A stretch of DNA of 64,000 bases, taken from a phage. Below the pieces are notes generated by a model. The model did no database searches. It was given only the letters and a program-made list of their open reading frames with translations, and was not told the origin of the DNA. Shown here piece by piece: positions 7,738 through 25,625 of the stretch. Position 1 is the first letter of the stretch. Each line of letters starts with the position of its first letter. The stretch lies in sequence record OZ346187.1. The stretch is one strand, 5' to 3'. The position numbers were made by a program, and so were the translations under genes.

Positions 7738-8091
7738 GATGAGTACCAACTTCAAGTGCCTGACACACCGAAGTATAAGACTGTGTACACCTTCGACACA
7801 ATTGAAGAACTGGAAGCATTTAAGGCAGAGCAGGAAGCCAAACTTCATGTGTTCGACGGTCATAAGTACAAAAAGGCACGCAAGGATGAGGACGGAAACG
7901 AAGTGGTTGACAGAGACGGAAACACGGTGTACGATCCTATCCTGAACGATGACGGAAAGCTTGAACTTATCTGGAGCCCTGTGGGTGAAATGGTGGTACA
8001 TTGCTTCTGGCAAGCTTCTAAAATGATGGGAGTCCCGTTCCAGATCACAGGTGAATACTTGTGTGGTCGTAATTGGGGTGATTGTCACTAA
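7738..8091 (+). CDS. DNA polymerase, family A, exon 2 (C-terminal part)
   Basis: Begins DEYQLQV (completes motif C HDE) and ends GRNWGDCH, the conserved C-terminal His of family-A polymerases. Confidence 0.7.
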   Translation, partial: DEYQLQVPDTPKYKTVYTFDTIEELEAFKAEQEAKLHVFDGHKYKKARKDEDGNEVVDRDGNTVYDPILNDDGKLELIWSPVGEMVVHCFWQASKMMGVPFQITGEYLCGRNWGDCH

Positions 8092-8140
8092 TGTAAACTA
8101 TCAACACATGGAAGTGTTGTTGAGCAAAGAGGAGACTTTT

Positions 8141-8425
8141 ATGGTAGTAGAACCAACAAAAACATTTACATCCATGACTATCCCTGTTATTATGCAGGTG
8201 GAGTGTGTTCAGGTATCTCAAGTGTGGCCTGGCACCAAAATCCCAACAGGGCCTGATTTCTTTCAGGTTGGGAAAGTGTACAATGTCTGGAAGGCACCAG
8301 ATTGTTACCCTTTCATTAAAGATGACCGTGGGATGCTGTGGTATCTTGGAAATGACTTGACACTGCACCTTGGGAATGCTATTATTGCAGTATTCAGACT
8401 TAACAAGAAGGAGACCGATCAATGA
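8141..8425 (+). CDS. hypothetical protein
   Basis: ORF-track 8051-8425; ATG at 8141 preceded by AGAGGAGA RBS. Confidence 0.45.
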   Translation: MVVEPTKTFTSMTIPVIMQVECVQVSQVWPGTKIPTGPDFFQVGKVYNVWKAPDCYPFIKDDRGMLWYLGNDLTLHLGNAIIAVFRLNKKETDQ

Positions 8426-8649
8426 CGACTTTGGTTAAAGCCACCTTTGTAGAAGAAAAGATGACAGACATGTCATTCTTTAAAGAAGGAAAGACCTACG
8501 AGGTTTATTCCGATAAAGCTCGTGCAAACAAAATGATTAAAGACGAGGAAGGGGTTGACTGGTATATCTCTCACCTGGCAAACGGTGAGTATCATATCTA
8601 CGGAACCACTTTGCTTGCCAAGTTTGTAGTTGTTGAAGAGGACCTATGA
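8422..8649 (+). CDS. hypothetical protein
   Basis: ORF overlapping neighbours by 4 nt (ATGA coupling). Confidence 0.45.
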   Translation: MTTLVKATFVEEKMTDMSFFKEGKTYEVYSDKARANKMIKDEEGVDWYISHLANGEYHIYGTTLLAKFVVVEEDL

Positions 8650-8840
8650 AAGTAAAGTATCTTGCTGAAGGTATGAATAGGTATTTTACCCTTGGTGAAG
8701 AATATTGGCCCTTTACAAACAACGGCGATGTCTACGTGAAAGATAATTTCGGCACGCCGTGGTTTCTGCACTCTAATGGGCTGGGATACTCCATTTACTG
8801 CGGTGCAGTGAACAACACAACTCTTGCAGAGTTCGTTTAG
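8646..8840 (+). CDS. hypothetical protein
   Basis: ORF, ATGA-type overlap with upstream gene. Confidence 0.45.
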   Translation: MKVKYLAEGMNRYFTLGEEYWPFTNNGDVYVKDNFGTPWFLHSNGLGYSIYCGAVNNTTLAEFV

Positions 8841-8850
8841 AGGAGGTAGG

Positions 8851-9222
8851 ATGTTAGTAAAAGGTACCCACACAGTCAAACAACGTATTGAAGTTGAGAT
8901 TGATGATTGTGAGCTGAAGCATATTTTACGGTCATGCTCCAACGTTTTGCTCCTTAGTATTCTTCAGGAGCGAGCGGAGAACGAGTTCTTAAATGCATTG
9001 GCAGGCCGTCCCGGTGACTTCTGTGTGCGTAAGCGTGGTGACAACAAGTCGTGGTTGTGGGAGATCGATGCCGACTGGGATTACCACAAAAATGAGGGTA
9101 TAGATGAGCCTATTCGTGAACTGACGGACAAAGAGATTCAGATGTACAATGAAGTTTGTCATTGGGCAACACGCCAACAAATTTACCTAGACCCTGTGTG
9201 GCTGATTGAAAATAGTCGTTGA
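8851..9222 (+). CDS. hypothetical protein
   Basis: ATG at 8851 preceded by AGGAGG RBS. Confidence 0.45.
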   Translation: MLVKGTHTVKQRIEVEIDDCELKHILRSCSNVLLLSILQERAENEFLNALAGRPGDFCVRKRGDNKSWLWEIDADWDYHKNEGIDEPIRELTDKEIQMYNEVCHWATRQQIYLDPVWLIENSR

Positions 9223-9247
9223 CAAGAAGTAAGGTTAGATGTAAGAT
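9219..9247 (+). promoter_or_regulatory. sigma70-like promoter TTGACA-17-TAAGAT
   Basis: -35 TTGACA and -10 TAAGAT with 17-nt spacer, upstream of ORF 9299. Confidence 0.55.
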
Positions 9248-9298
9248 ACTCCTCACAAACAGAGTATTGATTGTTAAATAATTAAGGAGACCTCTAAG

Positions 9299-9526
9299 AT
9301 GAAAATCATGTTGAAACCAGAATGCGTTGCAAACGACCGAGCTTTTAAAGATTGCACACTTGGCGCTACTTATGAAGCAGAGTTTTGTGAGAACCCTTTG
9401 GTAAAAGCCCTTTTGGAAGAAGTACTTTATCACAAGAAGAGCTTGATGAGCTGGAAAACTCAGCACAGTGCCTTACCTTTAAAGATGATGAAGGAGACTC
9501 TGTCTGGTGCACTGTTAACGAAGTAG
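9299..9526 (+). CDS. hypothetical protein
   Basis: ORF with AGGAGA RBS. Confidence 0.5.
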   Translation: MKIMLKPECVANDRAFKDCTLGATYEAEFCENPLVKALLEEVLYHKKSLMSWKTQHSALPLKMMKETLSGALLTK

Positions 9527-9552
9527 TTTTTGTAAAAACTGAACATTAATAC

Positions 9553-9590
9553 TTGACAACAGCGATAGGACCTAATACAATGGTCCTATC
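9553..9590 (+). promoter_or_regulatory. sigma70-like promoter TTGACA-17-TACAAT with overlapping inverted repeat GATAGGACC/GGTCCTATC (candidate operator)
   Basis: Consensus -35 and near-consensus -10; perfect 9-bp inverted repeat brackets the -10. Confidence 0.6.
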
Positions 9591-9612
9591 AAAACGAAAG
9601 GGGACCACAGCA

Positions 9613-9873
9613 ATGACCAAACAATATCAACGAATTAAAGCCAAGGTTAAGCCAGACTATCTAGAGAAGGACTCTGCTTTTCGGGACTGCACAGCTGACA
9701 AAGTTTACACAGGGGCCGTCCTGTTGAACGATAAACTTGAAGTAGATGTGCTGGGTAAAGAGGCCGTTATCGAGGATGACAACGGTGACTGTGTTTTCTG
9801 CACCACACGAGAGCTAGAAGTCTTAGAATATTTCGGTGAAATCTTCAACTCCTTAGACGACGAGGAAGCGTGA
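9613..9873 (+). CDS. hypothetical protein
   Basis: ORF-track 9553-9873; start moved to ATG 9613 downstream of promoter, with AAGGGGA RBS. Confidence 0.5.
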   Translation: MTKQYQRIKAKVKPDYLEKDSAFRDCTADKVYTGAVLLNDKLEVDVLGKEAVIEDDNGDCVFCTTRELEVLEYFGEIFNSLDDEEA

Positions 9874-10262
9874 TGAAAAATATTTGGGATATCGATATCT
9901 TTGAAGCCTCTAAGCTTGACGGTGCTGATGGAGTGATTATGGTGTCTGATGGCAAGGCAACACTAACTTCCGGAGATATCATCTATGCCTTGGACGAGCT
10001 GGCGCTTCTGAAATCTACCGGTAACACTTTGGAGGAGCGTCTTCAAGGATTCGCTTTCAAAGAAGGTACAAATACAGCCATGATGTGCACCACACGGACA
10101 GTTCAGGTTGGTAACGGTGTCTATATGATTATTGCTGTGTGTCCTAAATTCAGCAACGTCAACAAAGATGATGCTGACGCGGTCAACGATGTGGTTGTTC
10201 TCTTCGTGGGTGACGCTATGGCAGATCTGATGAATGCAGGAGAAGCAGCAAATGAAGACTGA
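9870..10262 (+). CDS. hypothetical protein
   Basis: ORF, ATGA overlap with upstream gene. Confidence 0.5.
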   Translation: MMKNIWDIDIFEASKLDGADGVIMVSDGKATLTSGDIIYALDELALLKSTGNTLEERLQGFAFKEGTNTAMMCTTRTVQVGNGVYMIIAVCPKFSNVNKDDADAVNDVVVLFVGDAMADLMNAGEAANED

Positions 10263-10554
10263 AAACATCACCCCAGCAGGGTTCTTAAAAGTATACCGTG
10301 AACTGCTATATACTACAGAGGACAGTGTTCTAGAGTATCCAGAATATCTTTTGCTGTATAAGTATCTGCAGGAGGCTGGTGAAAATCTGCCAGTTAGTGC
10401 AGAAGGTGGTCCAAACTGGATATACAGCGCATGGAGAAAGGTTGACATTCTCCCAGACCCAGGTAAAGATATGGTAGTTTGGCAGCTTATCAACAACATC
10501 GGGATTCCAATCTTTGATGAAGCTGTTAAAATCTATTTTGAACTTGACGATTAA
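10252..10554 (+). CDS. hypothetical protein
   Basis: ORF-track 10234-10554; ATG at 10252 after GCAGGAGAAG RBS. Confidence 0.45.
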   Translation: MKTENITPAGFLKVYRELLYTTEDSVLEYPEYLLLYKYLQEAGENLPVSAEGGPNWIYSAWRKVDILPDPGKDMVVWQLINNIGIPIFDEAVKIYFELDD

Positions 10555-10571
10555 TATCAGGAGACCTTAAG

Positions 10572-10817
10572 ATGACTGAAGCAGTTGCTCGCGCAGGACA
10601 GAAAGTACGTTGTGTTGAAGTAGGTTTTGGTGGCAAAGGGTGTCAAAACTTGACTCAAGGCAAGGAATATGCTGTTATCTCTGGTGGTGGCGACGAAAGT
10701 ATTGTGTTCGAGGGCCACATCCTGGATGCTGAAAACTTTGAAATCTTTGACGACGATGGGGATCCGATCACCTGCCTGCTGGACGGGAATTGGGGAACTT
10801 TCGAAGTGATTGGCTAA
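10572..10817 (+). CDS. hypothetical protein
   Basis: ORF with AGGAGA RBS. Confidence 0.5.
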   Translation: MTEAVARAGQKVRCVEVGFGGKGCQNLTQGKEYAVISGGGDESIVFEGHILDAENFEIFDDDGDPITCLLDGNWGTFEVIG

Positions 10818-10827
10818 CAAATACCTA

Positions 10828-10856
10828 TTGTAATTTACAGAAGGGGATGCTAAAAT
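10828..10856 (+). promoter_or_regulatory. sigma70-like promoter TTGTAA-17-TAAAAT
   Basis: -35/-10 hexamers with 17-nt spacer upstream of ORF 10901. Confidence 0.5.
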
Positions 10857-10900
10857 AGTGTCTCCTTCTATGTTGTTCAAATAAAATCGGAGATTCCATA

Positions 10901-11269
10901 ATGGAACAAATGAACGATCAAGAGTCGGTTGCGATGAACGAGCAAGAACAACCTCAAGAATTTTTCTTAGGGTTAAGTAAAGATCAAGTGTCTCTTTTGC
11001 TAGTGCTTTCTTCTTTCATGGGAAGACTTCAGGAGCTCACACAACAACCGGAGGCTGAACAATTATTTCAGGCTCTGCGTGAAGAAGAAAAATATCGTCG
11101 TTTGGACTATGCCTTAGGTTGGGTAGCTCAACAACGAGATATGCTGATGGCCCTCTCTGGGACCACAAGTTTTGCAATGGGCCTGTTGGCTCAAGTTCAG
11201 GACAAATTAATTCAAGCAGGGTTTGCACACACGGCAAACACTAACGAAGAACAAGGAGACAAAGAATGA
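10901..11269 (+). CDS. hypothetical protein
   Basis: ORF with GGAG RBS; no recognisable motif. Confidence 0.5.
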   Translation: MEQMNDQESVAMNEQEQPQEFFLGLSKDQVSLLLVLSSFMGRLQELTQQPEAEQLFQALREEEKYRRLDYALGWVAQQRDMLMALSGTTSFAMGLLAQVQDKLIQAGFAHTANTNEEQGDKE

Positions 11270-12492
11270 GCGTTATTCAACAATTCGCTAACCCGATGAA
11301 TCCGCGTGAAACTGTTTTACTGGCTCACGGCATGATTAAACGCGTCAGCATCAAGCCTATCAAAGGTGCTGATCCTACAACAGGTATTAAAACCACTGTG
11401 TGGCAAGGTAAGAAAATTGAATCCAGCCACACCATCTCTTTACTGATTTCTGAACTGGATTCCTCTGATAACCTACTTCAAGGTGGTGAAGAAGTTTGGA
11501 TCAGTATGGGCGATAAGCTGCTTAAACCGGGTCATCAAGACTCTGTCTCTGTTAAAATTGATGACAAGTGGGAAACCGTAACGCCAGGATGGATCGTAAA
11601 TATCCCTTTGAAGGCAAACGAGCATAACGGTAAGACCTACTACAAAGGCTCACTGGCTAAGATGGTTAAGCTGGGTGCAGGAGAGGCTCCAGCAGCGACT
11701 CAGCAGCAAAAACAGCAACAAGGTGCACAATCACAAGGCCAGAAGCAGAAACCTCAGCAGAATGCCAATCAGGACGTTTTACGCATCTATGGTGATGTGA
11801 CTCAGATTGTTGGCAACGTGGTTACTGTAAATGACCACAAGATTGGCGAAGGTGCTATGGTTGTAACTGATGAGCAGCTTAAAGACCTGGTGGTAGGTGG
11901 TCGTGTTGCAGCCATTGTTGACAAAGACACTGGAAACATTATCAGTGGTTTCAAGGCCTATCCTCCTAAGGCAGAGAACGGCACTCAAGGCTCCGGTGGC
12001 AAGCGTAAATCCTCTTACGACCCTATCGGTGTGGAAACGGGGCATAGCATCAATGCGTTGCAGATCATCCTGGATCGCGGGTTTAAGGTAGACGACCCAC
12101 TGGGCGTGGCTAAAACACTGCACGTAGTCACCATTGAGCTTAAGAAAGAGTATGCTCAAGCCACCAACCGAACTGAAGATGAAGTAGGTGCCAGTGTCGG
12201 TAATGCGGTGTTGAACGCTTGTCGCCGTATTGACAAGAAAACGAAAGTTGATGATTTTGCAGCGGCAATTACTGCAGAAGCAAAAGATGTCTTGACTAAT
12301 CTGGCTGAGCCGTTGTACGATTGGATCAAGAACGGTGCTGGGTCAACTGACCATCAAGAACCTCAGGCTGCCAAACAGGAAGCAGCTCCACAGCAAAACA
12401 CTGTAGACGCTCCTCCTGTAAATGATGGGGAAGATGACCCGATGGATCAGAATCCAGCACAGTACGCCTTTGATGATGACATCCCTTTTTAA
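11266..12492 (+). CDS. putative ssDNA-binding protein with SSB-type acidic C-terminal tip
   Basis: C-terminus ...AQYAFDDDIPF matches the E. coli SSB tail (DFDDDIPF); Gln-rich low-complexity linker QQQKQQQGAQSQGQKQKPQQ. Confidence 0.5.
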   Translation: MSVIQQFANPMNPRETVLLAHGMIKRVSIKPIKGADPTTGIKTTVWQGKKIESSHTISLLISELDSSDNLLQGGEEVWISMGDKLLKPGHQDSVSVKIDDKWETVTPGWIVNIPLKANEHNGKTYYKGSLAKMVKLGAGEAPAATQQQKQQQGAQSQGQKQKPQQNANQDVLRIYGDVTQIVGNVVTVNDHKIGEGAMVVTDEQLKDLVVGGRVAAIVDKDTGNIISGFKAYPPKAENGTQGSGGKRKSSYDPIGVETGHSINALQIILDRGFKVDDPLGVAKTLHVVTIELKKEYAQATNRTEDEVGASVGNAVLNACRRIDKKTKVDDFAAAITAEAKDVLTNLAEPLYDWIKNGAGSTDHQEPQAAKQEAAPQQNTVDAPPVNDGEDDPMDQNPAQYAFDDDIPF

Positions 12493-12507
12493 CAATTAGT
12501 TAACATA

Positions 12508-12535
12508 GCCCTGCCCGAAAGGGTGGGGCATTTTT
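12508..12535 (+). terminator. rho-independent terminator hairpin GCCCTGCCC-GAAA-GGGTGGGGC + T-run (copy 2 of 2)
   Basis: Same hairpin as at 1129-1155, directly downstream of the SSB-like gene. Confidence 0.6.
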
Positions 12536-12554
12536 GTATAAGGAGATCTGAAAA

Positions 12555-12971
12555 ATGACATTAGAAGATATCATTGTTAAACCTGAGAACTATGACCAAT
12601 ACAACCTGTCAACTCAATCTGTAGACCTTGGATGCGCCACAGTTAGTGCGTGGCTGGTTAATGGAAAAGAGCTGGACAAGTGCTTAGAAGCTCACATGTC
12701 TGTTAACAAGTTTCTGGATGAAAATACTCACTGGCTTGAGGGTGCTGGAGTATATGCTTCATGGTTGGAGAGCATGGGCTTTGACTATCAATCTGATGAA
12801 GGGTGGTGGAGCTATCTGGCTATCTGTCCAGAAACACTGCAATGCTTCATGAAATACTCTGAAGATCTTGAGTACCGAGCGGTGGTTGATAGTGCTATTG
12901 CCCGTTATAGCCGTAAACCTTTTTCCCATGACATTAAAACTGTGGAAGAATTTGTTGAAGTTTTCTGTTGA
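12555..12971 (+). CDS. hypothetical protein
   Basis: ORF with AGGAGA RBS. Confidence 0.5.
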   Translation: MTLEDIIVKPENYDQYNLSTQSVDLGCATVSAWLVNGKELDKCLEAHMSVNKFLDENTHWLEGAGVYASWLESMGFDYQSDEGWWSYLAICPETLQCFMKYSEDLEYRAVVDSAIARYSRKPFSHDIKTVEEFVEVFC

Positions 12972-12999
12972 CACAGGTTGAAAGGTGTGCAATTATAAC
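12968..12999 (+). promoter_or_regulatory. sigma70-like promoter (TTGACA -35; -10 around AATTATAAC)
   Basis: Consensus -35; A/T-rich -10 candidates at 17-20 nt. Confidence 0.45.
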
Positions 13000-13067
13000 T
13001 TCATAAAACGGGAGGACGCGATGAACGAAGAAAACTGGGATGTATAACTAACAGGAGACCACTGCCC

Positions 13068-13265
13068 ATGATTTATCGAATCCGTGTAAGAGAAGATGCA
13101 CCAGGCTGTTACTTTGACTGGCGTGGGTGGTGGTTTCTCCACCCAATGGATGGACTCACAGATAGAATGCTGGATGCTGCCCTTTATACAGATACCGACA
13201 TAGAATATAATCTCTATCTGAAGGACGGTATAGATAACGGTCTATTTGAAGCAATTCCTGTGTAA
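13068..13265 (+). CDS. hypothetical protein
   Basis: ORF with AGGAGA RBS. Confidence 0.45.
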   Translation: MIYRIRVREDAPGCYFDWRGWWFLHPMDGLTDRMLDAALYTDTDIEYNLYLKDGIDNGLFEAIPV

Positions 13266-15266: not shown

Positions 15267-15512
15267 ATGAACAAAGGGTGGACATTTGTAGACGGCGTTG
15301 AAAACATGCCTCTAGGAAAGTATATTGTAGCCATGGCAGATGAGAATGGCAAGGTTGATTTCGGAGCTTGCGAGGTTGTTCTTGCAGGATCTGGTGACTA
15401 TGCTCACAAAACTGGGATAATTAACGGTCATTTCTACTTTGATTACAACCCTGTTGTGGCGTATATGGCTATGCCAGAGTTCGAGCTCCCAAAGGAGGGT
15501 GCGGATGTTTAA
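15267..15512 (+). CDS. hypothetical protein
   Basis: ORF with AGGAGA RBS. Confidence 0.5.
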   Translation: MNKGWTFVDGVENMPLGKYIVAMADENGKVDFGACEVVLAGSGDYAHKTGIINGHFYFDYNPVVAYMAMPEFELPKEGADV

Positions 15513-15702
15513 GCTTAAATCTGCATGGAACATCGCTGTGGGGGACGAGATCCGCATCCCAGGTGGAAAGACCATTATGAAGATATCTCGTATCGAGTAC
15601 GAAGGTGATCGTGTATTTCATATCTTTGCAGAAGATGGTCGAGAAATTTATATACAGGCAGGCTCTCACATCTATATTCGTAAGAAAGGGGACGACAAAT
15701 GA
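15505..15702 (+). CDS. hypothetical protein
   Basis: ORF-track 15439-15702; ATG 15505 after AGGAGGG RBS. Confidence 0.45.
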   Translation: MFKLKSAWNIAVGDEIRIPGGKTIMKISRIEYEGDRVFHIFAEDGREIYIQAGSHIYIRKKGDDK

Positions 15703-16028
15703 CAGAGATCATCATTTCAACTGCAGGGTATGTGTTCCTGACAATCATTGCACTGACCATTTTGGTGGTGGTATATGGAATTGTTATTCTCCCTATTCTT
15801 GAGACAATTAGTTTGTGTCGGTGTTGGAGAAAGGCTTACGGTCCACAGCCGTGGAAGGACTGGCCCCACCTGGTGCACATAGCGTTCTCTTATGCTTATG
15901 ATCACGCCAGCAGTGCATGCATAACCGGGTATCACGCCCACAACTGGAGCTGGGAAGGGTTGAGGAAATGGAATGTTACAAAGACCATACCTCTGCGCAT
16001 GTACAAACCTAAAAACAAAGACAGCTGA
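15699..16028 (+). CDS. putative membrane protein
   Basis: Hydrophobic N-terminal segment YVFLTIIALTILVVVYGIVILPIL. Confidence 0.45.
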   Translation: MTEIIISTAGYVFLTIIALTILVVVYGIVILPILETISLCRCWRKAYGPQPWKDWPHLVHIAFSYAYDHASSACITGYHAHNWSWEGLRKWNVTKTIPLRMYKPKNKDS

Positions 16029-16057
16029 TACTTGAAAATCCCTGGCATATCAAGTGT

Positions 16058-16092
16058 AAGGAGGATTTCTAAAATGGATTTCCTCCTTTTGA
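16058..16092 (+). terminator. putative rho-independent terminator (AAGGAGGA ... TCCTCCTT + TTTT)
   Basis: 8-bp GC-rich stem followed by T-run at the end of the rightward gene block. Confidence 0.45.
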
Positions 16093-16344
16093 TATTTCAC
16101 CGGGCCAGATATTTTAAAATTCTTAGAAAATCAGGTCTTTGAAATGAAAAACAGATCGAGTACCGAAAGAGGATGTACAAATTTTCTGATAATAATGGAC
16201 TTATTGTTATAAAAGGTCAGAGGTAAGCTGGGAAAGTTCTGGTAGAAGGGTGAGAGTATGTGCGGAAAAATCTGGAATAGTGACTTAAAGTACGGTGCGA
16301 ACGATAAGGAATTGAGCAGCACATCTTATCGTGCCTGTATTTTG

Positions 16345-16730
16345 TGTGGATGAATGAGAATACCTATCATTGTGAGAACCATTATCATTACGGGCAATTT
16401 AACAGTACCGATTATGCGCACCACTGGCGATACATACAGGGATTGATAACATGGGTTACTGTTTACGCACATAACAATTGTATTTCTTACTATTTGTGTG
16501 GGCGTTTAGACGTTGACGGTCAGAAGTCTGCAGGTTAATATCTAATCTATTGGCTGCTAACTATATCCCACACAAATAGTAAGAAATACAATTGTTATGT
16601 GCGTAAACAGTAACCCATGTTATCAATCCCTGTATGCATGCCAGTGGTGCGCATAATGGGTATTATGTTAAATTGCCCGTAATGATAATGGTTCTCACAA
16701 TGATAGGTATTCTCATTCATCCACACAAAA
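16345..16730. repeat. long near-perfect inverted repeat (~160-bp arms 16345-16504 and 16569-16730, ~65-bp spacer)
   Basis: Arms are reverse complements; ORF-track ORFs 16344-16538(+) and 16595-16786(-) translate the same peptide (NENTYHCENHYHYGQFN) from both arms. Confidence 0.85.
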
Positions 16731-16959
16731 TAGATTGCAAATGTTGTGCCACTGTGTGAACGGCCTGGCCTATTAATTTGCCTCACTGCCTTGATATTTG
16801 AGAATTATTATAAGAATGAGAAGTATTCCCATTTCGTCCGCCTGGCAGCACTCCTGTAGGTCCTGCAAGGACTCTAGCTGAAAGCTAGACCCTTCGGGCC
16901 TCCCTGCAGGTCAGGTCAAAATCGTGGTAGAATTGGGCCTGTTCAGATATTTCTGGCTG

Positions 16960-17520
16960 ACTCTTCAGGTCTGTGTGGGAAAAGCCAACCTCTCCGGCGG
17001 GGCATGGGGTCATGACGGGAAAATTGCAGGTCAATTAAAAAATTTACGTGGTGTATGAAGCGCTCTTCAGGTAAGGCAGGTATTATGGGATGAAACCCTC
17101 TTCAGGCAATGATATTTGTGGGTGTGATATTTGCTGGAAAGCCAGATATGACGGGACTCCCGGCGGGGCAGGGGTAGTACAGACAGGGAAAATATGGAGG
17201 ATGTGGTTGGGTAAATTGATCAGGCAGGTAGAGTATGGAATATGTTACAGGTATGTTAAATAGGGAGGCTGAATATCTGTAGGATTTGTGTGTAAAATCA
17301 AAGACTTAAGTGGTGTTGTGGTATTTTCTATAAATAATTCAAGTTTAATAGGTAATATTTGTCTCTATTCGCTTTGTGTGGTAAACAGATTCAGATGAGA
17401 TTGGTTTACAAGTGTATACATAATATACAAATTAAAGATACAAGAAACCCCCCTCCCCCTTCGGCTACCATTCACCTTTTCCTCTGACTGGTACTTAAAC
17501 ACTTATTCAGACTCTTCAGG
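16960..17520. repeat. dispersed direct repeats: 4x CTCTTCAGG and 2x CTCC(C)GGCGGGGCA-GGGT...GGGAAAAT
   Basis: CTCTTCAGG near 16962, 17062, 17098, 17512; longer repeat at ~16992-17024 and ~17157-17193. Confidence 0.6.
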
Positions 17521-17870
17521 TTATCACCCATATATCATATGGCAGTGACTGGTGTCCTCCGGCCCCTCTTTCGTCACCCGTCCGCTTCGCCATGCTAATG
17601 CCATAGCCAATGGTTCGGTTGTTCACCCTGTTCACTCAGGTGTATCTCCATACCCCTTCAAACCGAAGAGAACAGAAAACCCGAATTACTCGGTAAAAGA
17701 AAAGAGAAGAACTTAATTTTATCAGGATAGGCAAGAATGTCAAGGCATGACTGCTCACTAAACAAGCAAACAGTCATGTGTGGAAGGTAAGTGATTGTGG
17801 TGGTAGGAAATTTAGTTGAAAGATGTGTTATAGGTGCTTCCAGCACTTTAGCCGGGCAGCTAATTGTGTG

Positions 17871-18086
17871 TCAGTCCAGCGGTTCATCCTCTACTTCACT
17901 GAAATCAATGTTCATGGTCTCTTCCCAACCATCGATCTCAGCACAAGAGTGGAGTTCTTTAGGGTTTACTCCCAAAGCCTCAGCAACAGAGTCTATATTT
18001 AACACCTCTGGCAGGTATGATTCATCGAATTCAAGGTAAATCAGGCCACGAGTGTTGTCAGCTCCACCAAATATCTCTATCTTCAT
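17871..18086 (-). CDS. hypothetical protein (acidic)
   Basis: ORF-track ORF, last gene of the leftward block. Confidence 0.4.
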   Translation of the reverse strand: MKIEIFGGADNTRGLIYLEFDESYLPEVLNIDSVAEALGVNPKELHSCAEIDGWEETMNIDFSEVEDEPLD

Positions 18087-18207
18087 GAAATCTCCTCTGG
18101 AAATGAGAGTGTGAACAGGGTTTTATACGTTCTAATGCACAGGAATTATACACGTTTGCCTCTTCAGGCCATGCTTTAGCATGAGGAACCTGTGTGGGCT
18201 CGGTGCT

Positions 18208-18420
18208 TCATAGTCTACCACCTCTGAACTCTTCGTGCTCAGGCATAATAGAGAACCAGATATCTACGATGTCCTCCCACGTCAGGTCATCAGCCTCAGG
18301 ATCTGTCTGGGACGAAGATGAAGAGTCCTCAGAATCTAAGTTTTCCTCTTTAACTGGCTCATCCAAGGGACATATGGTCACTCCTTCGGATGTCTCTTCA
18401 GATGCATGTGTGTTGATCAT
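18208..18420 (-). CDS. hypothetical protein (acidic)
   Basis: ORF-track ORF. Confidence 0.4.
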   Translation of the reverse strand: MINTHASEETSEGVTICPLDEPVKEENLDSEDSSSSSQTDPEADDLTWEDIVDIWFSIMPEHEEFRGGRL

Positions 18421-18727
18421 GTTCCCCCCGTGAGTATTCCGGCAACAGCCGCTATGGAAGTAATGATCATCAGGATCACCACTAAAACTTCAGACAATGT
18501 TCTCATTGTGTATTCCATATTCTCCAAACTGTGTGTGGATACTATCACGGGAGCGGTAATGTGTCAACAGCAACGCCGCGAGGGTTTGGTTAAAATCCGA
18601 GCGTATGGTGATTTGGGTCAAAACGGACGTGCGTTCTCGCTACGCTCGAAATATGGAGTTGTTTGTAGGGAGCTCTTAAACGCTCTGTAATGAGATTAAC
18701 TGCCCAAGGTATGCAATCGTGCACCAG

Positions 18728-18756
18728 ATAAAGAAAAGGACGCCACAGAGCGTCCT
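18728..18756 (-). terminator. putative terminator hairpin AGGACGC-N6-GCGTCCT + T-rich tail
   Basis: Perfect 7-bp stem downstream of ORF 18781-19092. Confidence 0.5.
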
Positions 18757-18780
18757 AGGTGTCTTAAATTTGATATTTTG

Positions 18781-19092
18781 CTATACCCACGAGGGCTTAT
18801 CAAGGTTGGAGTAGCTGAAAGGTGTCAAAAGGTGACTGTCAAAATCTCTCAAACTATCCAAATCTTTTTCCTCGTCCTGACACCATCTGTGCCTACATTT
18901 GTTGTTGTAGTGCATGGAATGCATAGCGTTCTGCAACTTAACAGGCACAAGTGATTCAGGAGTAGATAGTATTGTTGGGTATGCCAGAACCACCTCAAAC
19001 AGTGGAAACACATCGAAACTAAAGTCTACCTCTGCAGAGGTTGATGGCATGTAGGAGTATTTAGCCGCCTTTGTAGACATAATCCACCTCAC
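18781..19092 (-). CDS. hypothetical protein
   Basis: ORF-track ORF. Confidence 0.45.
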   Translation of the reverse strand: MRWIMSTKAAKYSYMPSTSAEVDFSFDVFPLFEVVLAYPTILSTPESLVPVKLQNAMHSMHYNNKCRHRWCQDEEKDLDSLRDFDSHLLTPFSYSNLDKPSWV

Positions 19093-19415
19093 ACAGGTTT
19101 GATAATACCTTCACCGAATAGCTCTTCGTATCTAATCTTGTCCGGATCCCACTCTTGGATAATTTCGAAGACAATATCCAACCCAGGGATAATCACTTCT
19201 CCAGTGTCAAGTTTGGCAAGAACAAAACCAGAAGGCTGAATGGTTTCCCAGTTGCGCCGATTGGAATAGAAGACCTCGAAAATATCGCCGACCTTTATCT
19301 GTTGATCAAGATGTTCAAGATTCTCTTTCATATAGACGCAGCGGATTTTTCGTGCAGGCCATAGACCACCTGCATCACGTTCATTTAGCTCTTTTACAGT
19401 AATCGGTATACCCAT
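19089..19415 (-). CDS. hypothetical protein
   Basis: ORF, 4-nt overlap with downstream gene. Confidence 0.5.
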   Translation of the reverse strand: MGIPITVKELNERDAGGLWPARKIRCVYMKENLEHLDQQIKVGDIFEVFYSNRRNWETIQPSGFVLAKLDTGEVIIPGLDIVFEIIQEWDPDKIRYEELFGEGIIKPV

Positions 19416-19435
19416 CTCAAATCTCCTTCATAGAT

Positions 19436-19466
19436 AGTAAAAAGAGGGGCCCAAGCCCCCCTCTTT
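19436..19466 (-). terminator. rho-independent terminator (GGGGC-CCAA-GCCCC core stem, T-run on minus strand)
   Basis: GC stem-loop flanked by A-run/T-run between ORFs 19471 and 19415. Confidence 0.55.
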
Positions 19467-19470
19467 GTCA

Positions 19471-19776
19471 TTATTCTACAGAGCGTTTGAACAGAATGTC
19501 TGCCTCAGACATGTGCTCAACCTCTTCTTCGATTTTAGCGCGACGTTTTTCAGCCTCATAGCGAATATCGAACTCGGTAGCCACCAGAGATTTGATGAAT
19601 TTAGGAGAATACAGGTGATCCTGCTTCTCAACGAGAATGATATCCTTAATGGCATCTTTCAGATCTTTAATCTGAAGTTGGAGTTCTACCAGTTCTTCGA
19701 TTGTTTTGCGAAGGCGATCACGCTCTGCAGTGTCAGAAGGAAGAGAGGTGAACAGTTCAACTTTAGATTTAGCCAT
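19471..19776 (-). CDS. hypothetical protein (predicted coiled-coil)
   Basis: ORF with AGGAGA RBS; heptad-like charged pattern. Confidence 0.5.
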   Translation of the reverse strand: MAKSKVELFTSLPSDTAERDRLRKTIEELVELQLQIKDLKDAIKDIILVEKQDHLYSPKFIKSLVATEFDIRYEAEKRRAKIEEEVEHMSEADILFKRSVE

Positions 19777-19804
19777 AGTAAGAGTCTCCTTATGTTGTTT
19801 TAAA

Positions 19805-20056
19805 TTAACGTTCTACAAAAATACCGTTCAGTTCAATAACCAGGAATTTCTGGTCTTCACTATCGTCTCGTGCCAGCACCTCACAGACGTATCGGTCATC
19901 CCCATCATCATCGCAGTAAAATACAAGACTGAGGACTTTATCATGGTAAACCTTCGCAACTACCGCCTCGTAAGTATTGCCGATTGTGAATCCAAGATAA
20001 TCTCCGATGCATTTGACAACAACATGGTCTCCAGCATTTAAGTCAATCTTCGTCAT
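19805..20056 (-). CDS. hypothetical protein
   Basis: ORF-track 19805-20122; internal ATG at 20056 with RBS is the more likely start. Confidence 0.5.
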   Translation of the reverse strand: MTKIDLNAGDHVVVKCIGDYLGFTIGNTYEAVVAKVYHDKVLSLVFYCDDDGDDRYVCEVLARDDSEDQKFLVIELNGIFVER

Positions 20057-20211
20057 TACTGCGCTCCTTGGGTAATAATACTGTATGTAAAACTTTAACC
20101 AGAGATGTGAATAACGCCCCAAAACACACCGATAGCGCTAAAACAGACAAGGCCATCATTAAAGCTTCAGTAAAATCAGTCATTCCTCACCTCTTGTTAG
20201 TCACTATACTA

Positions 20212-20475
20212 TCATTTATCCTTGTCGTCAAGAACTTTTTTAAATCTTTCAGGGATATCTCCCGTTCTTAGATAGTTCATGACCTCGCAAGGTTCCCACT
20301 TGAATTTCTTACAGAGCAGGGCGGCTGAGATTGTTTCATTGCGAAAAGAAAGGATATTAATATCCCACTCTGAGAACCCCAACTTCCGAAGGGTAGCTAC
20401 AGAAATCCTCACCGCAACCCAGCAGCAAAAACATGCAACAAACGCCACTGCTACAACCCACATCAGGATGTTCAT
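20212..20475 (-). CDS. putative membrane protein
   Basis: N-terminal hydrophobic helix MNILMWVVAVAFVACFCCWVAV. Confidence 0.45.
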   Translation of the reverse strand: MNILMWVVAVAFVACFCCWVAVRISVATLRKLGFSEWDINILSFRNETISAALLCKKFKWEPCEVMNYLRTGDIPERFKKVLDDKDK

Positions 20476-20564
20476 ATAAGCACCTTACTGAAATACAAGA
20501 CACAGTGTTAAGGTTACTGACCAGCAAATAATTAACAGTGCCGTTGCAACCTTGGCAAGATTTA

Positions 20565-20852
20565 TCATAGTGCCTCTAAGATTTCATATCCTTCGGGTCG
20601 GAATACAAGCCACTCCGTGGCTCCGTTTGGTCGATACGCTTTATACAGAACAACCTGGTCTCGGCACATGCACATGGCTACATAGTTTTCATCCACACCT
20701 GCAGCCTGCATTGCATCTTCTTCTCCGGCAACTGCTTTGCTTACAACTTCCTTGGTAGGCAGGTGTGCGATCAGCTCGTCACCATCATTAATTCCAAAAT
20801 GGCTGAGTTCGCCGTTGGTATCTTTAATCTTAATCTTAACCAGATCTTTCAT
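20565..20852 (-). CDS. hypothetical small acidic protein
   Basis: ORF-track ORF; MK-start, acidic composition. Confidence 0.5.
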   Translation of the reverse strand: MKDLVKIKIKDTNGELSHFGINDGDELIAHLPTKEVVSKAVAGEEDAMQAAGVDENYVAMCMCRDQVVLYKAYRPNGATEWLVFRPEGYEILEAL

Positions 20853-21181
20853 TAGTCTTCCCCCAGGTTCAAAGGTCCTAAGATTTCATATGCCAGATTA
20901 GAAGTTACAAGAGGGTCTTCTGCGTCTTTAGTATTATACCACCCGTGAATAACCAGAGTCCCACTTTGTTTCATGTCCAACTGGAACTCTTCTGCCGTTT
21001 CCTCATCCAGCTCCAAGATTTCCATAAGGTATTTGATGTTAGGGAGGTATGCAGCTGTTACAGTCCCCTCTACCAGACCTTCAGGCCAACCTACATCTGG
21101 ATGACAAGTAGGAACCAGATTGGTCAGCTTAATGGTGTACGCTTTTTCTGCACGAGCCTTCAGTAACGGGTCAATCTTCAT
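20852..21181 (-). CDS. hypothetical protein
   Basis: ORF-track ORF. Confidence 0.5.
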   Translation of the reverse strand: MKIDPLLKARAEKAYTIKLTNLVPTCHPDVGWPEGLVEGTVTAAYLPNIKYLMEILELDEETAEEFQLDMKQSGTLVIHGWYNTKDAEDPLVTSNLAYEILGPLNLGED

Positions 21182-21531
21182 TATTCGTCCTCCTCTTCGG
21201 TACCTGCTTCCAGTAATAAGTTAAGAATATCTTCTGCACAAGGCTCATAGAACTCTTGGCCTTCATTATCGATGATTTTGTAGTCATCTCCGCGAATAAT
21301 CAGAGGATCACTCTCAAAATTATCGAGACCTTTAACAACGACAACACGATCGATTGCCATCATTGTAAGAACTTTATCGACATCTTCCTCTGCTACACCA
21401 TACTGCAGCAGAATGTCTTTGGTAGGAGGAACAGCATCCACCACAACACCGTTACCAAAACCTTCCGGTAAGTTAGCTAAAATATCTTCCGGAACCACAC
21501 TAACATCAAAACCAGTAATTTCTACTTTCAT
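21181..21531 (-). CDS. hypothetical acidic protein
   Basis: ORF; starts MKVEITG, acidic C-terminus. Confidence 0.5.
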   Translation of the reverse strand: MKVEITGFDVSVVPEDILANLPEGFGNGVVVDAVPPTKDILLQYGVAEEDVDKVLTMMAIDRVVVVKGLDNFESDPLIIRGDDYKIIDNEGQEFYEPCAEDILNLLLEAGTEEEDE

Positions 21532-21792
21532 TTACAGCACCTCTTCGTCAACTACTTCATAAAAATGGCCTGGGATTGCAATAGCGTTCTCACCTTCACC
21601 TACAAACACAGTTCCGTCAAGAATCAACATCATAAGAGTTTCTGGAATATCCTCTTCCTGAACGTTGCCAAAACCTTTAATCAGCTCGTAGGTTGGAAGA
21701 TTTACCTCTAAGATGTCACCATCTTTAGAGCGGAAATCAACACCATCCTGAATCTCTGCCATTTCAAGGTTTTTCAGTTTAATCTTCATCAA
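21532..21792 (-). CDS. hypothetical small acidic protein
   Basis: ORF; starts MMKIKLK, ends VVDEEVL. Confidence 0.5.
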   Translation of the reverse strand: MMKIKLKNLEMAEIQDGVDFRSKDGDILEVNLPTYELIKGFGNVQEEDIPETLMMLILDGTVFVGEGENAIAIPGHFYEVVDEEVL

Positions 21793-21868
21793 TCAGTCTC
21801 CCGTCTTGTTAAGATGAAGGTATTATTTCACACAGGGTTGGCGTTGTCAACACCTGTGTGCAAGAAAA

Positions 21869-22264
21869 TTACTGAAACAGTGCGGATAAATTACCTTCTG
21901 GTGGGAACTTATCTGCCAAAAACGGTGTTAGCACAGTAGCCTTCTGAAGATCTGGGGTCCACTCGTTGTTCAGAACATCCCAGTAGTACGCAATGTTGCT
22001 GTGTGGGTGCCGCATTACGAACTTTTTCCCTTCGTAGTCATCTGAAACCTCTACAGAAGAAATAACAACAGAATCTTCAAGGGTTTCTTCATAGAAAGAT
22101 CCACCTTCAAATTTCCAACGAGATGCAAGAGCTCCTGCCTTGAACGCTGCAGATAACGGACTGTCTGCAAGAACATACATTTCTTGCACTCTGTCGCTGC
22201 GATCTTTGCTTCTTACGTTGTATACAGTATCTGAGCTATACTCAACACGGTATAGGCTTACCAT
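21869..22264 (-). CDS. hypothetical protein (paralog of 24071-24469)
   Basis: Shares HP.S...YW...W.P pattern with ORF 24071-24469. Confidence 0.5.
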   Translation of the reverse strand: MVSLYRVEYSSDTVYNVRSKDRSDRVQEMYVLADSPLSAAFKAGALASRWKFEGGSFYEETLEDSVVISSVEVSDDYEGKKFVMRHPHSNIAYYWDVLNNEWTPDLQKATVLTPFLADKFPPEGNLSALFQ

Positions 22265-22623
22265 TACCGCACCTCCTCAATAACTTCCACATCTGAGCCC
22301 ACCACAAATGCAAAAGGACAGGTTTCATGAAAGACATCCGGATCGCCGCCAAGCTTGCTAACAATCTCTCCACCACTAATAAACACAAGCTCACCGATAT
22401 TCATCAGATTGCTGAAATAGTACCCATAATGATTAAAGAATGCAGCAGGGTCAGGTAGACTAGTAGCCTCAAGCACTACATCAGTTGAGGTTACTTTCTT
22501 ATCATAACCTCTCGCCTTTTGAGATGCAAGATCTGCAGAATCCTCAGGCGACCGGAGATGCACAGGAATTGTTTCACCAATAAAGCGTACTTTCATATTA
22601 TCACCCAACAACCATAGCTTCAA
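22264..22623 (-). CDS. hypothetical protein
   Basis: ORF-track ORF. Confidence 0.5.
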   Translation of the reverse strand: MKLWLLGDNMKVRFIGETIPVHLRSPEDSADLASQKARGYDKKVTSTDVVLEATSLPDPAAFFNHYGYYFSNLMNIGELVFISGGEIVSKLGGDPDVFHETCPFAFVVGSDVEVIEEVR

Positions 22624-22864
22624 AAGGGGTCATGAACGAATAAACGGCATCATCATCTGCTTCAGGGAATGCTCCCAAAGACTTCATGTCTGAGCCCTTG
22701 ACAAATACAAGGTTTTGATCAAAAGCTTCTTGAGGATCAATCCGATACATATTTCGTAGAATATCGCCTACCTCCTCATCAAGAGGTGAGTATGCTGTGC
22801 ACGTTTTTCCGATCAAGCTTTGAGAATCAGGGTATCCACCTGAAGTTTTAAAATAAACAATCAT
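22601..22864 (-). CDS. hypothetical protein
   Basis: ORF-track ORF. Confidence 0.45.
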   Translation of the reverse strand: MIVYFKTSGGYPDSQSLIGKTCTAYSPLDEEVGDILRNMYRIDPQEAFDQNLVFVKGSDMKSLGAFPEADDDAVYSFMTPFEAMVVG

Positions 22865-22955
22865 ATAGTATCACCTCTGGTAAGAGATTGGGATTCCTTT
22901 CCCACAAATAATTACAAACCTTCCTTATCGAGGAAGTATGCTAATCCAAGCAGGA

Positions 22956-23225
22956 TTATTCCTCTACAATCTCATACACATCCGGAGTTACAATCAACTC
23001 TTCTCCGTTACCCGGTGCAACAAACACCACCATGCCTTCAGGTGTGTGCTTTTTAGCCATCTCGATAACATCTTCTCGCAGAGCTGGCTCCATCAGATCA
23101 AAACCTTCACCCAGGGCATCACGAACCACCTTCATATAGTCAACTGGTTGTGCTTCGACAATCATACCTTCAACCAGTCCACAGTTTTTGTCTGCCAGCT
23201 CAGTTTTGAATAATTTAATTTTCAT
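22956..23225 (-). CDS. hypothetical small acidic protein
   Basis: Starts MKIKLFK, ends EIVEE. Confidence 0.5.
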   Translation of the reverse strand: MKIKLFKTELADKNCGLVEGMIVEAQPVDYMKVVRDALGEGFDLMEPALREDVIEMAKKHTPEGMVVFVAPGNGEELIVTPDVYEIVEE

Positions 23226-23362
23226 TTAGAGGTCTCCTCAATTATTTGATATTAATAGCCGTAACCTAACACATTAACTACAACTGCGATTGCAAACATA
23301 ATTTCAAAGCATGCAATCTCTACATTTGGAACTAATTTCTTGATCACACCCATTGTAGCACC

Positions 23363-23680
23363 TCATTCTCTAAAGTCAATCTTTACTTTGCCTTTCCCCT
23401 TACCTTTCTTTCCACCGCATTTAGCCAGTTGACGTGCTGCAACATCTACCATACGGTCAGTTGCCTCGTAAGCATCACTGCCTTTAGCTTTGGCAATAAC
23501 TTCTTTTCCAGAATTGTCAAAAATGAACGCCATAACTTCCTGGTGATCATTTTCAACTTTTACACTCACACGTGCATAGTTGGCAGAGGGATGCAAACGC
23601 TCCAGCTTAGACATTTTGTGGGAAATGAAAGACACCATACCTTCAGTGATTTCTACGTTGCCAGTGATTTCAATTTGCAT
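23363..23680 (-). CDS. hpf: ribosome hibernation promoting factor / RaiA-family protein
   Basis: MQIEITGNVEITEGM...VSVKVEND...AKAKGSDAYEATDRMVDVAARQLAK aligns by eye with E. coli HPF (MQLNITGNNVEITEAL...ASAEGQDMYAAIDGLIDKLARQL). Confidence 0.7.
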   Translation of the reverse strand: MQIEITGNVEITEGMVSFISHKMSKLERLHPSANYARVSVKVENDHQEVMAFIFDNSGKEVIAKAKGSDAYEATDRMVDVAARQLAKCGGKKGKGKGKVKIDFRE

Positions 23681-23762
23681 AACGTGTTCCTTTTAAAGAA
23701 GAGGGAACCAAACCCTCTTTGAAAACAATGATACTAAATCTGAAGCGTTGTGTCAACAGTTT

Positions 23763-24053
23763 TTACAGATTGTTGTCGATAGTTTTTAAAATATCCACAG
23801 CAAGATCTGCCATTTTTCGAACATACTCTGCAAACTCAACAGGATCCTTGATCAAAGAATTCACAGGGTCGTACCCTAGAGCGTTCAAAATGGCTGCAGC
23901 ATCTACAACCTTCTCATCATTTGCGAAGATCTCTCCATCAAACTTGTAGGTCCATTTTGAGTCAATCTTGGCAGGGAATGATTGGTCAACGCTTGTTACA
24001 CCATCCTTTTTAAACGCTCCGGTGTTATCAGTGTCTAGAACTAAATCCATCAT
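23763..24053 (-). CDS. hypothetical protein
   Basis: ORF-track ORF. Confidence 0.5.
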   Translation of the reverse strand: MMDLVLDTDNTGAFKKDGVTSVDQSFPAKIDSKWTYKFDGEIFANDEKVVDAAAILNALGYDPVNSLIKDPVEFAEYVRKMADLAVDILKTIDNNL

Positions 24054-24070
24054 GTTAGTACCTCACCGTT

Positions 24071-24469
24071 TCAGTTTAGCTTTTCTTCAACAACCCCATA
24101 GCTCGGGACAGAGTCAAGAGCTTTCTGGTTTAAAAGTGGTGTAGCAGAATCTGCAAACGGTGTCCAAGTTTTTGTTCTGGCATTCCAGTAATGCTTCACT
24201 CTGGAATCTGGATGCACTATAACAAAAACTTTTTCACTTGTCAACACATTAATTTCTTCTACACCCTTGCTGATAATTTCTCCGTCATAGCCACCAGTCT
24301 GGTATCCTTCGTACCAGGTTCTTGCATATGCATAGCCAGCCTGCCAGCATGCAGCCTCCTCCGAGGTGGAGACTACGTAGAAGTCTTTCTCAAATTCTGG
24401 GATACGCCCTTGCTTTACGCTCCAAGCTCCGCGAATTTTCATTGTAACTTTGAACAGTTTATTTTTCAC
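24071..24469 (-). CDS. hypothetical protein (paralog of 21869-22264)
   Basis: Shared motif pattern with ORF 21869-22264. Confidence 0.5.
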   Translation of the reverse strand: MKNKLFKVTMKIRGAWSVKQGRIPEFEKDFYVVSTSEEAACWQAGYAYARTWYEGYQTGGYDGEIISKGVEEINVLTSEKVFVIVHPDSRVKHYWNARTKTWTPFADSATPLLNQKALDSVPSYGVVEEKLN

Positions 24470-24481
24470 AACGGTTACCCA

Positions 24482-24736
24482 TCACAGCTCTACAATCTCT
24501 GCATCTGACCCTGCCCCAAAGGCATAATAGGATTCTTCCCCGAAATAATATTCCGGTGCACCAGCAGCGATCAGGTCTGATCCCAAGATAAACACCACGT
24601 TGTGGCCTACATAACTGTGATGTTGCCGCACAGGATCATCCCACGGCAACCCTTCAAAGTATACCGCAGGAACGACCTTTCCCTTCAGGAAGGATTGTCC
24701 CAAGTAGACGTTAGAATCAAGAATTTTAACCTTCAT
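24482..24736 (-). CDS. small acidic protein, MKVK-family paralog
   Basis: MKVKILD start, GSDLIAAGA motif, acidic C-terminus EIVEL. Confidence 0.5.
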   Translation of the reverse strand: MKVKILDSNVYLGQSFLKGKVVPAVYFEGLPWDDPVRQHHSYVGHNVVFILGSDLIAAGAPEYYFGEESYYAFGAGSDAEIVEL

Positions 24737-24953
24737 TCTCGTCCTCCACTATCTCTACATCCTCACCAAGGGCAAAGTTGTAGGTCCACTGGCTGTCAAA
24801 GCAGTCCTGAGATGCACCAGCGGAAATAAGATCTGCACCTTTTATTTTTAAAAGGTCAGGATAATCTTCGTTAGGGATAGCGGTAAACACTTTCCCCACT
24901 AAGGGCTCCTGACCAATATAGAAGCTTGAATCTAAAACTTTAACTTTCATCAA
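24726..24953 (-). CDS. small acidic protein, MKVK-family paralog
   Basis: MMKVKVLD start, KGADLISAGA motif, EIVEDENEG tail. Confidence 0.5.
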   Translation of the reverse strand: MMKVKVLDSSFYIGQEPLVGKVFTAIPNEDYPDLLKIKGADLISAGASQDCFDSQWTYNFALGEDVEIVEDENEG

Positions 24954-25237
24954 CGGTCTCCCTCAGGCGGTTGTGGGACGTAAACACTGTTACGAATATC
25001 GTCAGCAGTGTAGTAATAAGTGGTTCCAACCCTATCTCGGGCTGCAATGTACTCTGCTATACCAATAAGTGCCATTGATTTGGTGGCGTATCTTCCCCAC
25101 TCGTTAGCTCCCCAGTAGAATTTAGACCAGTAGGGAATAATACCGAACAAATATACCTTTTGACGAACTTCCCAGTAAGTGCCTTTTCCGACAAGTTTAA
25201 ACTCTACTTCACTACTGTTAATCTTTTTCATTATCAA
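24950..25237 (-). CDS. hypothetical protein
   Basis: ORF-track ORF. Confidence 0.5.
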   Translation of the reverse strand: MIMKKINSSEVEFKLVGKGTYWEVRQKVYLFGIIPYWSKFYWGANEWGRYATKSMALIGIAEYIAARDRVGTTYYYTADDIRNSVYVPQPPEGDR

Positions 25238-25530
25238 TCTCCCTCTACCGTGGTCGGATTGTCAGTAAGAAATTGAGCATTGGCTGGAGGCACGCCTGAC
25301 ATTTTCCACACAACCATAAGTTTGTAACCAGGAACTCTATTAAGTGCAGATCGAGTAGAGTTTGTGCACGTATACTTTCGCTTTCCAAACCCGTTCTCCA
25401 TCATAATCCAGTACCCAGTATCTTTGTCACCAGGTATCGGTAGACCACCTTCATCAACCCACTGAATGGACCACGGCACGATGGCTACAGCTTTATATTT
25501 AAACTTTTTAAACCACTCAAAAAGTTTCAT
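25234..25530 (-). CDS. hypothetical protein
   Basis: ORF-track ORF. Confidence 0.5.
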   Translation of the reverse strand: MKLFEWFKKFKYKAVAIVPWSIQWVDEGGLPIPGDKDTGYWIMMENGFGKRKYTCTNSTRSALNRVPGYKLMVVWKMSGVPPANAQFLTDNPTTVEGD

Positions 25531-25625
25531 AATTCAGCCTCGCATAGACATAATCACTATAAACAGGCAAACAATGAATCCGAATGCCACGCCACCCATA
25601 AACGTTAATATTGATGCAATCATAG

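Follow-up and report, generated by a model that had tools for sequence, protein, structure and literature searches.

What is a near-perfect inverted repeat of about 160 bp doing at the point where two blocks of phage genes run towards each other? The question arises from sequence record OZ346187.1, of which a stretch of 64,000 nucleotides, called the window in the following, was analyzed. An earlier note, drawn up from the letters of this DNA, had described two arms lying about 65 bp apart and had considered a replication origin or terminus, a bidirectional terminator and a recombination site as possible explanations. Here, the repeat is placed in the context of related phage genomes, and these proposals are weighed against the formation of the repeat by a rearrangement and against its origin in the laboratory.

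The inverted repeat and its surroundings

The repeat itself was confirmed. A repeat search of the window returned three gapless inverted blocks, 16338-16404/16666-16732 (100% identity), 16406-16428/16640-16662 (96%) and 16430-16502/16567-16639 (99%). By gapped alignment these blocks merge into a left arm of 165 nt (16338-16502) and a right arm of 166 nt (16567-16732), which are identical in 161 of 167 alignment columns (96.4%) and are separated by a spacer of 64 nt (16503-16566); the coordinates given earlier agree with these to within about 7 nt. An inverted repeat of this kind is far above chance expectation. Folded as single-stranded DNA, the palindrome region reaches -193.9 kcal/mol as compared to -44.4 +/- 4.5 kcal/mol for dinucleotide shuffles (z = -33), and none of the 100 shuffles folds as well. 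The arms are AT-rich, with a GC content of 37%. A single short variable patch had been noted as the difference between the arms. Divergence of this type is present, but it is found in two patches, one in the left arm at 16404-16411 and one in the right arm at about 16628-16633.

The setting was also described correctly. According to the gene calls and the annotation of the related phage Alma, the rightward genes end at 16028 and the leftward genes at 17871, so that 1.8 kb between the converging blocks are gene-free. A protein-coding reading of the arms was rejected: their ORFs (64 aa, 16344-16538, plus strand; 63 aa, 16595-16786, minus strand) are mirror images that result from the repeat, and the patches shift the frames. 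None of 10 candidate products of the region exists among 15 billion proteins.

Both gene blocks have a terminator-like hairpin of their own well ahead of the palindrome. On the plus strand, the hairpin at 16058-16095 lies 3' of the last rightward gene (15699-16028) and consists of AAGGAGGA...TCCTCCTT followed by TTTTGATATTT. It is conserved together with the left flank in relatives and was read from the sequence only; it is missing from the consensus terminator scan because of its long loop. The hairpin of the leftward block (17693-17681, minus strand) was detected by the terminator scan.

The window carries the terminal repeat of a Vequintavirus

Sequence similarity assigns the window to the rV5-like coliphages (Vequintavirus), with matches at 90-98% identity in more than 120 phage records, none of which is the same genome. 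On the left, MaxTheCat comes closest (98.6%), and on the right, nomine and APECc02 do (about 98%); the flanks of the locus align cleanly with MaxTheCat, over 6081 nt without gaps and over 9061 nt with 2 gap openings.

Vequintaviruses have linear genomes with a direct terminal repeat of 458-459 bp in the gene-free zone between the converging blocks. For Gotham (vB_EcoM_Gotham, MT682716) a direct terminal repeat of 459 bp has been described (PMC7471380), which is annotated at both ends of the record, and EdH4 and HdK5 have a terminal redundancy of 458 bp (PMC6563267). Except between 16134 and 16495, the window and the reverse complement of Gotham are collinear through the terminal repeat of Gotham. 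Homology to the 458-459-bp repeat, which has been defined experimentally, is found where the blocks converge: on the minus strand, positions 16495-16842 correspond to Gotham 351 to 1 with 95.4-95.7% identity. The right arm and the spacer thus belong to the normal sequence of the terminal repeat. For the left arm, the match is to Gotham 111-277 in the orientation opposite to the native one, which makes this arm a second copy of a terminal-repeat segment of 165 bp, in inverted orientation. The outer end of the repeat is the same as in Gotham (GGCGGACG...), and position 16842/16843 of the window corresponds to the point at which the genomes of Gotham, EdH4, HdK5 and ECP2309 physically end, several records starting at that base. 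The terminal repeat is present in the window as one collapsed copy. Its inner boundary is missing, as the inner 108 bp, Gotham 352-459, are without counterpart anywhere in the 64-kb window.

With 7 copies in the window as compared to 0.75 expected, the motif TTTGTGTGG is over-represented. Five of the seven copies lie at 16341-17381, the others at 29659 and 56774. The 165-bp terminal-repeat segment has native copies on either side, and another one at 17373 has the opposite orientation; the motif is possibly a candidate protein-binding site in or near the terminal repeat. In addition, degenerate motifs are found in the gene-free DNA just outside the terminal repeat (16843-17220) and at 18159, namely CTCTTCAGG at 16957, 17064, 17099 and 18161, CCGGCGGGGCAKGGG at 16994 and 17160, and TGCAGGTCA at 16905 and 17025. 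A tandem array was not called in this motif region. Packaging or replication signals are a possible reading of these motifs.

Across the region of the locus, about 16-20 unannotated GenBank records named 'Campylobacter phage' (MG065635-MG065682; host C. jejuni) share 95-97% identity with Vequintaviruses of E. coli, which suggests that these records are mislabelled or contaminating coliphages.

Two further features of the window lie away from the locus. The ORF of the family-A DNA polymerase (4069-7467, plus strand) contains an in-frame insertion of about 1 kb at approximately 6082-7077, absent from Gotham and MaxTheCat, due to which it reaches 1132 aa. The insertion starts with CYSGDTQILTEKGW, ends with ...VCGNCN and gives a weak match to the Hint domain (E = 9e-4, below the Pfam cut-off), and it is probably an intein. 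The exact intein-bearing polymerase was not found in the collection of 15 billion proteins. Furthermore, seven tRNA calls (Arg, Tyr, Ser, Thr, Met, Pro) cluster at 60743-61555, among which the call at 61212-61310 is odd, with a length of 99 nt and a four-base anticodon.

The left arm is restricted to this genome

The segment forming the right arm occurs once per relative. In Alma, there is a single copy of the arm and no large inverted repeat. None of the 121 records matching 16040-16800 covers 80% or more of this region, and the matches end at 16494/16495. A single arm copy was likewise found in all of 10 further assemblies from ENA, Logan and NCBI that span the region, and in 10 other assemblies, which centre on the last gene of the left block, the small genes follow downstream as usual. 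The neighbouring proteins of 109 aa and 71 aa are widespread (309 and 1315 blocks, respectively), with the normal layout in 20 of the 20 contigs listed. Junction 19- to 25-mers of the palindrome are absent from IMG/VR. The junction 19-mer has one match each in the metagenome and GTDB collections; as one of these aligns to the window over 20 nt only and the other shows no significant similarity, both are regarded as chance matches. One arm is hence ancestral and the other lineage-specific, and since the relatives hold one arm only, the palindrome is specific to this genome.

This distribution bears on the functions that had been proposed for the palindrome. If it were a conserved cis-acting element, it could serve as a replication origin or terminus or as a bidirectional terminator at the convergence of the blocks, and its position in a 1.8-kb gene-free zone with converging transcription and a flip of the GC skew would fit such a role, as would the very stable hairpin that it could form. 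However, the palindrome is missing from every relative examined, all of which carry one arm only, and it can therefore not be the origin, the replication terminus or the terminator of the family. The GC skew changes its sign at about 17-19 kb, which is 1-2 kb to the right of the palindrome, and simply follows gene orientation. Against termination in particular, the arms are 165 nt long with 37% GC instead of forming a short G+C-rich stem, T-runs are lacking in the flanks (...CGTGCCTG and GATTGCAAATG...), the terminator scan is empty at this place, and each block already has its terminator-like hairpin. A conserved cis-element is accordingly the explanation to which we give least credence, and the proposals of an origin or terminus and of a bidirectional terminator were dropped.

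Three other types of element were considered and rejected. A conserved regulatory RNA is contradicted by the single arm in relatives and by the lack of a meaningful Rfam match; in Rfam 15 no match reached the gathering score, the lone one, to a vertebrate element, having 22 bits where the gathering score is 120. A transposable element with terminal inverted repeats (MITE-like) does not fit, since the relatives all possess the right arm and the interior as native sequence and the left arm alone is extra; moreover, the flanks CCTG and GATT are not a target-site duplication. Finally, a hairpin-telomere resolution site (protelomerase target) would have a perfect central dyad, whereas the centre here is a non-palindromic spacer of 64 nt.

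Each arm carries a private patch

The two patches were compared with the sequence of the family. In the left arm, positions 16404-16411 read AAC--AGTACCG as compared to AACATAATACCC in the family, and in the right arm, positions 16628-16633 or thereabouts read GGC-ATGCAT as compared to GGCGATACAT. With 49-nt probes, neither patch was found in any of 120 related records (best matches 96.0% and 92.2%); each arm has one derived patch. IMG/VR contains one match for the ancestral form; this collection is poor in such phages and hence uninformative on the patches. In contrast to the patches, the allele AATTGTATT is common to both arms. It is a minority allele also present in MaxTheCat, which indicates that the copy was made from this phage's own lineage.

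Sequences resembling the patches recur nearby, AGTACCGA at 16159-16166 and GCATGCATA at 15917-15925. They were considered as possible patch donors and are short matches of a kind expected by chance. The spacer shows a private change as well: with 64 nt as compared to 67 nt, it is 3 nt shorter at the centre of the palindrome than in all 6 relatives compared (GACGTTGACGG vs GACGTCTGGACGG).

The palindrome lies at a deletion with three strand-switch joints

Between positions 16134 and 16495 of the window, the relatives carry 11.2-12.8 kb of DNA, namely Gotham 352-11818, ECP2309 352-13137 and MaxTheCat (locus L009) 15469-28275. The endpoint of the left flank, 16134, corresponds to Gotham 11819, ECP2309 13138 and MaxTheCat 15468, and the terminal repeat resumes at position 351 of Gotham and ECP2309 and at 28276 of MaxTheCat. 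In nine other relatives for which both anchors are listed, the anchor-to-anchor distance amounts arithmetically to 11.5-12.8 kb. About 11.2-12.8 kb are therefore absent, including the inner 108 bp of the terminal repeat, and apart from an inverted segment described below this DNA was not found elsewhere in the 64-kb window. In the deleted span, 30 small genes are annotated in Gotham and 35 in MaxTheCat. All of the 10 lost proteins tested belong to PHROGs without known function, including a 'putative holin' of MaxTheCat (BASEL label). A report of deletions in Vequintavirus was not found in a literature search.

The left flank is followed by a non-coding segment of 203 bp (16135-16337; 226 bp if the shared joint bases are included), which has the opposite orientation in relatives and is located there directly after the last genes of the left block. 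It matches ECP2309 12884-13106 (88%) and Gotham 11565-11755 (74%). From left to right, the window thus has the left block, the non-coding piece in inverted orientation, the extra copy of the terminal-repeat segment, likewise inverted, the native terminal repeat and the right block. The relatives have a gene-free gap of about 1 kb after the 109-aa gene (15699-16028 in the window), in the middle of the block of small genes (10331-11348 in locus L010; 12157-13090 in ECP2309). The left endpoint of the deletion and the inverted segment both fall into this gap of the intact relatives.

All three new joints are strand switches at a microhomology of about 7-10 nt. At joint 1 (16116-16134) the microhomology is of the AGAAAATCAG type, a run that flanks the non-coding segment in inverted orientation in the relatives. 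Joint 2 is located at about 16333-16341 (CCTGT.TT vs CCTATCTT). Joint 3 (16495-16502, plus strand) consists of TGTGTGGG, which pairs with CCCACACA at 16567-16574 as an inverted repeat of 8 bp. Homology to the relatives switches strand exactly at this joint, the normal orientation beginning at 16495. The TGTGTGGG/CCCACACA repeat is older than the palindrome, as it is present with a distance of about 64-67 nt in Alma, Gotham, ECP2309 and MaxTheCat. In navn and in one IMG/VR contig it is imperfect without a compensating change. Instead of a conserved hairpin, it is probably just a pair of TTTGTGTGG-type motifs. At their inner ends, the arms accordingly coincide with a pre-existing short inverted repeat, and the spacer between them is native.

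Fold-back priming as the probable origin of the palindrome

Fold-back priming at short inverted repeats beside DNA breaks is known to make palindromes centred on the old repeat and its spacer (PMC7999016). The pre-existing 8-bp inverted repeat at the inner arm ends is the signature of this process. With moderate confidence, we therefore read the palindrome as a strain-specific rearrangement scar that arose by fold-back priming at the genome end, followed by template switches. Among the options of the earlier note, the recombination site comes nearest to this reading, inasmuch as the palindrome is a rearrangement joint in the region of the genome end; the part that did not stand is a role as origin or terminator.

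The following course of events can be envisaged. A DNA end within the terminal repeat, about 108 nt from the inner boundary, would have been resected, exposing a 3' end (CCCACACA). This end could then fold back, pair with the native TGTGTGGG at a distance of about 64-67 nt and prime synthesis along its own strand for 165 nt. Subsequently, the growing end would switch template twice at short microhomologies, copying first the 203-bp non-coding piece in inverted orientation and then entering the left block, whereby the chromosome would be rejoined in the non-coding gap after the gene at 15699-16028. As a net outcome, about 11-12.6 kb would be lost, comprising 30-35 small genes and the inner portion of the terminal repeat, and the joint would carry a palindrome of 165 bp. 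The starting end would lie near the physical end of the genome and might be a natural free end, present after injection or during the processing of concatemers. The three joints may have been formed in one event or in several. We infer this order of events from the sequence comparison, as well as their occurrence in vivo, their start at a genome end or break and the viability of the phage.

Several observations speak against a scar of this kind. The joint rests on a single sequence, an independent assembly of this phage not having been found in the protein and contig collections searched, and the divergence of the arms, two complex patches without simple substitutions, is an odd pattern. Packaging might depend on the inner boundary of the repeat, which is lost, and a viable phage would have to cut elsewhere. 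Furthermore, three consecutive strand switches within 400 nt are also typical of chimeras formed by strand displacement in vitro.

The last point leads to the possibility that the structure originated in the library or in the assembly, either as a strand-displacing or snap-back chimera made in vitro, for example by multiple displacement amplification (MDA) or by fill-in during end repair, or through an assembler that joined sequences wrongly close to the collapsed terminal repeat. In this case, the real phage would have the layout of its relatives. Chimeras from MDA and other in-vitro amplification are typically inverted and joined at microhomology, as are the three switches seen here within 400 nt. 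No other of more than 130 related genomes and assemblies has the joint, the site lies in a terminal repeat, which assemblers handle badly, and the deletion of the inner boundary puts the viability of such a phage in doubt. However, single chimeras are rare and differ from each other, so that they seldom win the consensus, and about 12 kb with read coverage would not silently vanish from within a contig during assembly. Moreover, the arms are not identical and have one derived patch each, whereas the mechanical duplication of one read set would yield identical arms, and the remainder of the window is of high quality. Fixed-end packaging should also tolerate a chromosome that is about 9% shorter. 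Taken together, we regard an artefact as a possibility to be taken seriously, if a rather unlikely one.

If the rearrangement is a scar formed by fold-back priming, a stronger form of this reading holds that hairpin-primed synthesis took place in vivo at the phage's own terminal repeat and that the deletion mutant is viable with a redefined repeat. We consider this combination doubtful. Were it true, the locus would provide natural evidence for snap-back at TGTGTGG(G) motifs in the end processing or repair of Vequintaviruses, and the inner repeat boundary as well as about 30-35 early genes would be dispensable. The scar itself would be expected to create a site prone to hairpin or cruciform formation, and the inner boundary of the terminal repeat must then have moved.

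It is also conceivable that a real rearrangement has acquired a role, for example by replacing the lost inner boundary or by acting as a hairpin primer for the duplication of the terminal repeat during concatemer processing, the mutant still being packaged. A hairpin intermediate was once proposed for terminal-repeat duplication in T7. The formation of such termini is still poorly understood (PMC13595956). In favour of an acquired role, the phage was presumably propagated and sequenced despite the loss of Gotham 352-459, the left arm adds copies of the over-represented motif TTTGTGTGG, and the point 459 bp in from 16842 falls by arithmetic at about 16384, inside the left arm. The imperfect state of the native 8-bp repeat in navn and the IMG/VR contig argues against it, and overall an acquired role seems quite unlikely to us.

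Implications

Should the rearrangement be real, an rV5-like phage would be able to dispense with about 12 kb containing 30-35 genes of unknown function, which would be useful for minimising or engineering therapeutic candidates. The inner 108 bp of the terminal repeat would then not be needed in their usual place, which bears on how fixed-end repeats are cut and duplicated. If the structure is an artefact, the record needs to be corrected, and large inverted repeats beside collapsed terminal repeats need a check of the reads before they are read as origins or terminators.

Comparison with known systems

The locus can be compared to the terminal repeat of other Vequintaviruses, since 16495-16842 is 95% identical to Gotham 351-1, in the same place and with the same outer end. 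It differs from them by the lack of the inner 108 bp, by a second copy of a 165-bp piece in inverted orientation and by the absence of the adjoining 11-12.6 kb.

Inverted chimeras from MDA resemble the locus in their strand-switch joints at microhomology and in partner segments that lie within about 10 kb of each other. They are, however, rare single molecules, in contrast to the consensus structure with diverged arms found here.

Heat-stable deletion mutants of T5 are an example of viable deletions in phages that package unit-length DNA between fixed ends. As in these mutants, a block of small non-essential early genes beside the terminal repeat would be lost here, and the chromosome would be about 9% shorter. 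Unlike in T5, the deletion enters the terminal repeat and leaves a palindrome, and viability is presumed.

Serial template switching (FoSTeS/MMBIR) has been described mainly for human and yeast chromosomes. It shares with the present locus several joints at few-base microhomology and the combination of deletion, inversion and duplication in one small region; the differences are that phage DNA is concerned here and that a single event for the three joints is conjecture.

Fold-back priming is known from yeast, Tetrahymena and mammalian cells, and the seeds in the classic experiments were 42-229 bp long, as compared to 8 bp here (PMC7999016). It acted on eukaryotic chromosomes instead of the end of a phage genome, and a giant palindromic molecule is not formed in the present case, where the palindrome would end after 165 nt because of the further template switches. 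Common to both are a centre consisting of a pre-existing short inverted repeat with its native spacer, arms that begin exactly at this repeat, one arm that is ancestral, and the loss of DNA on one side.
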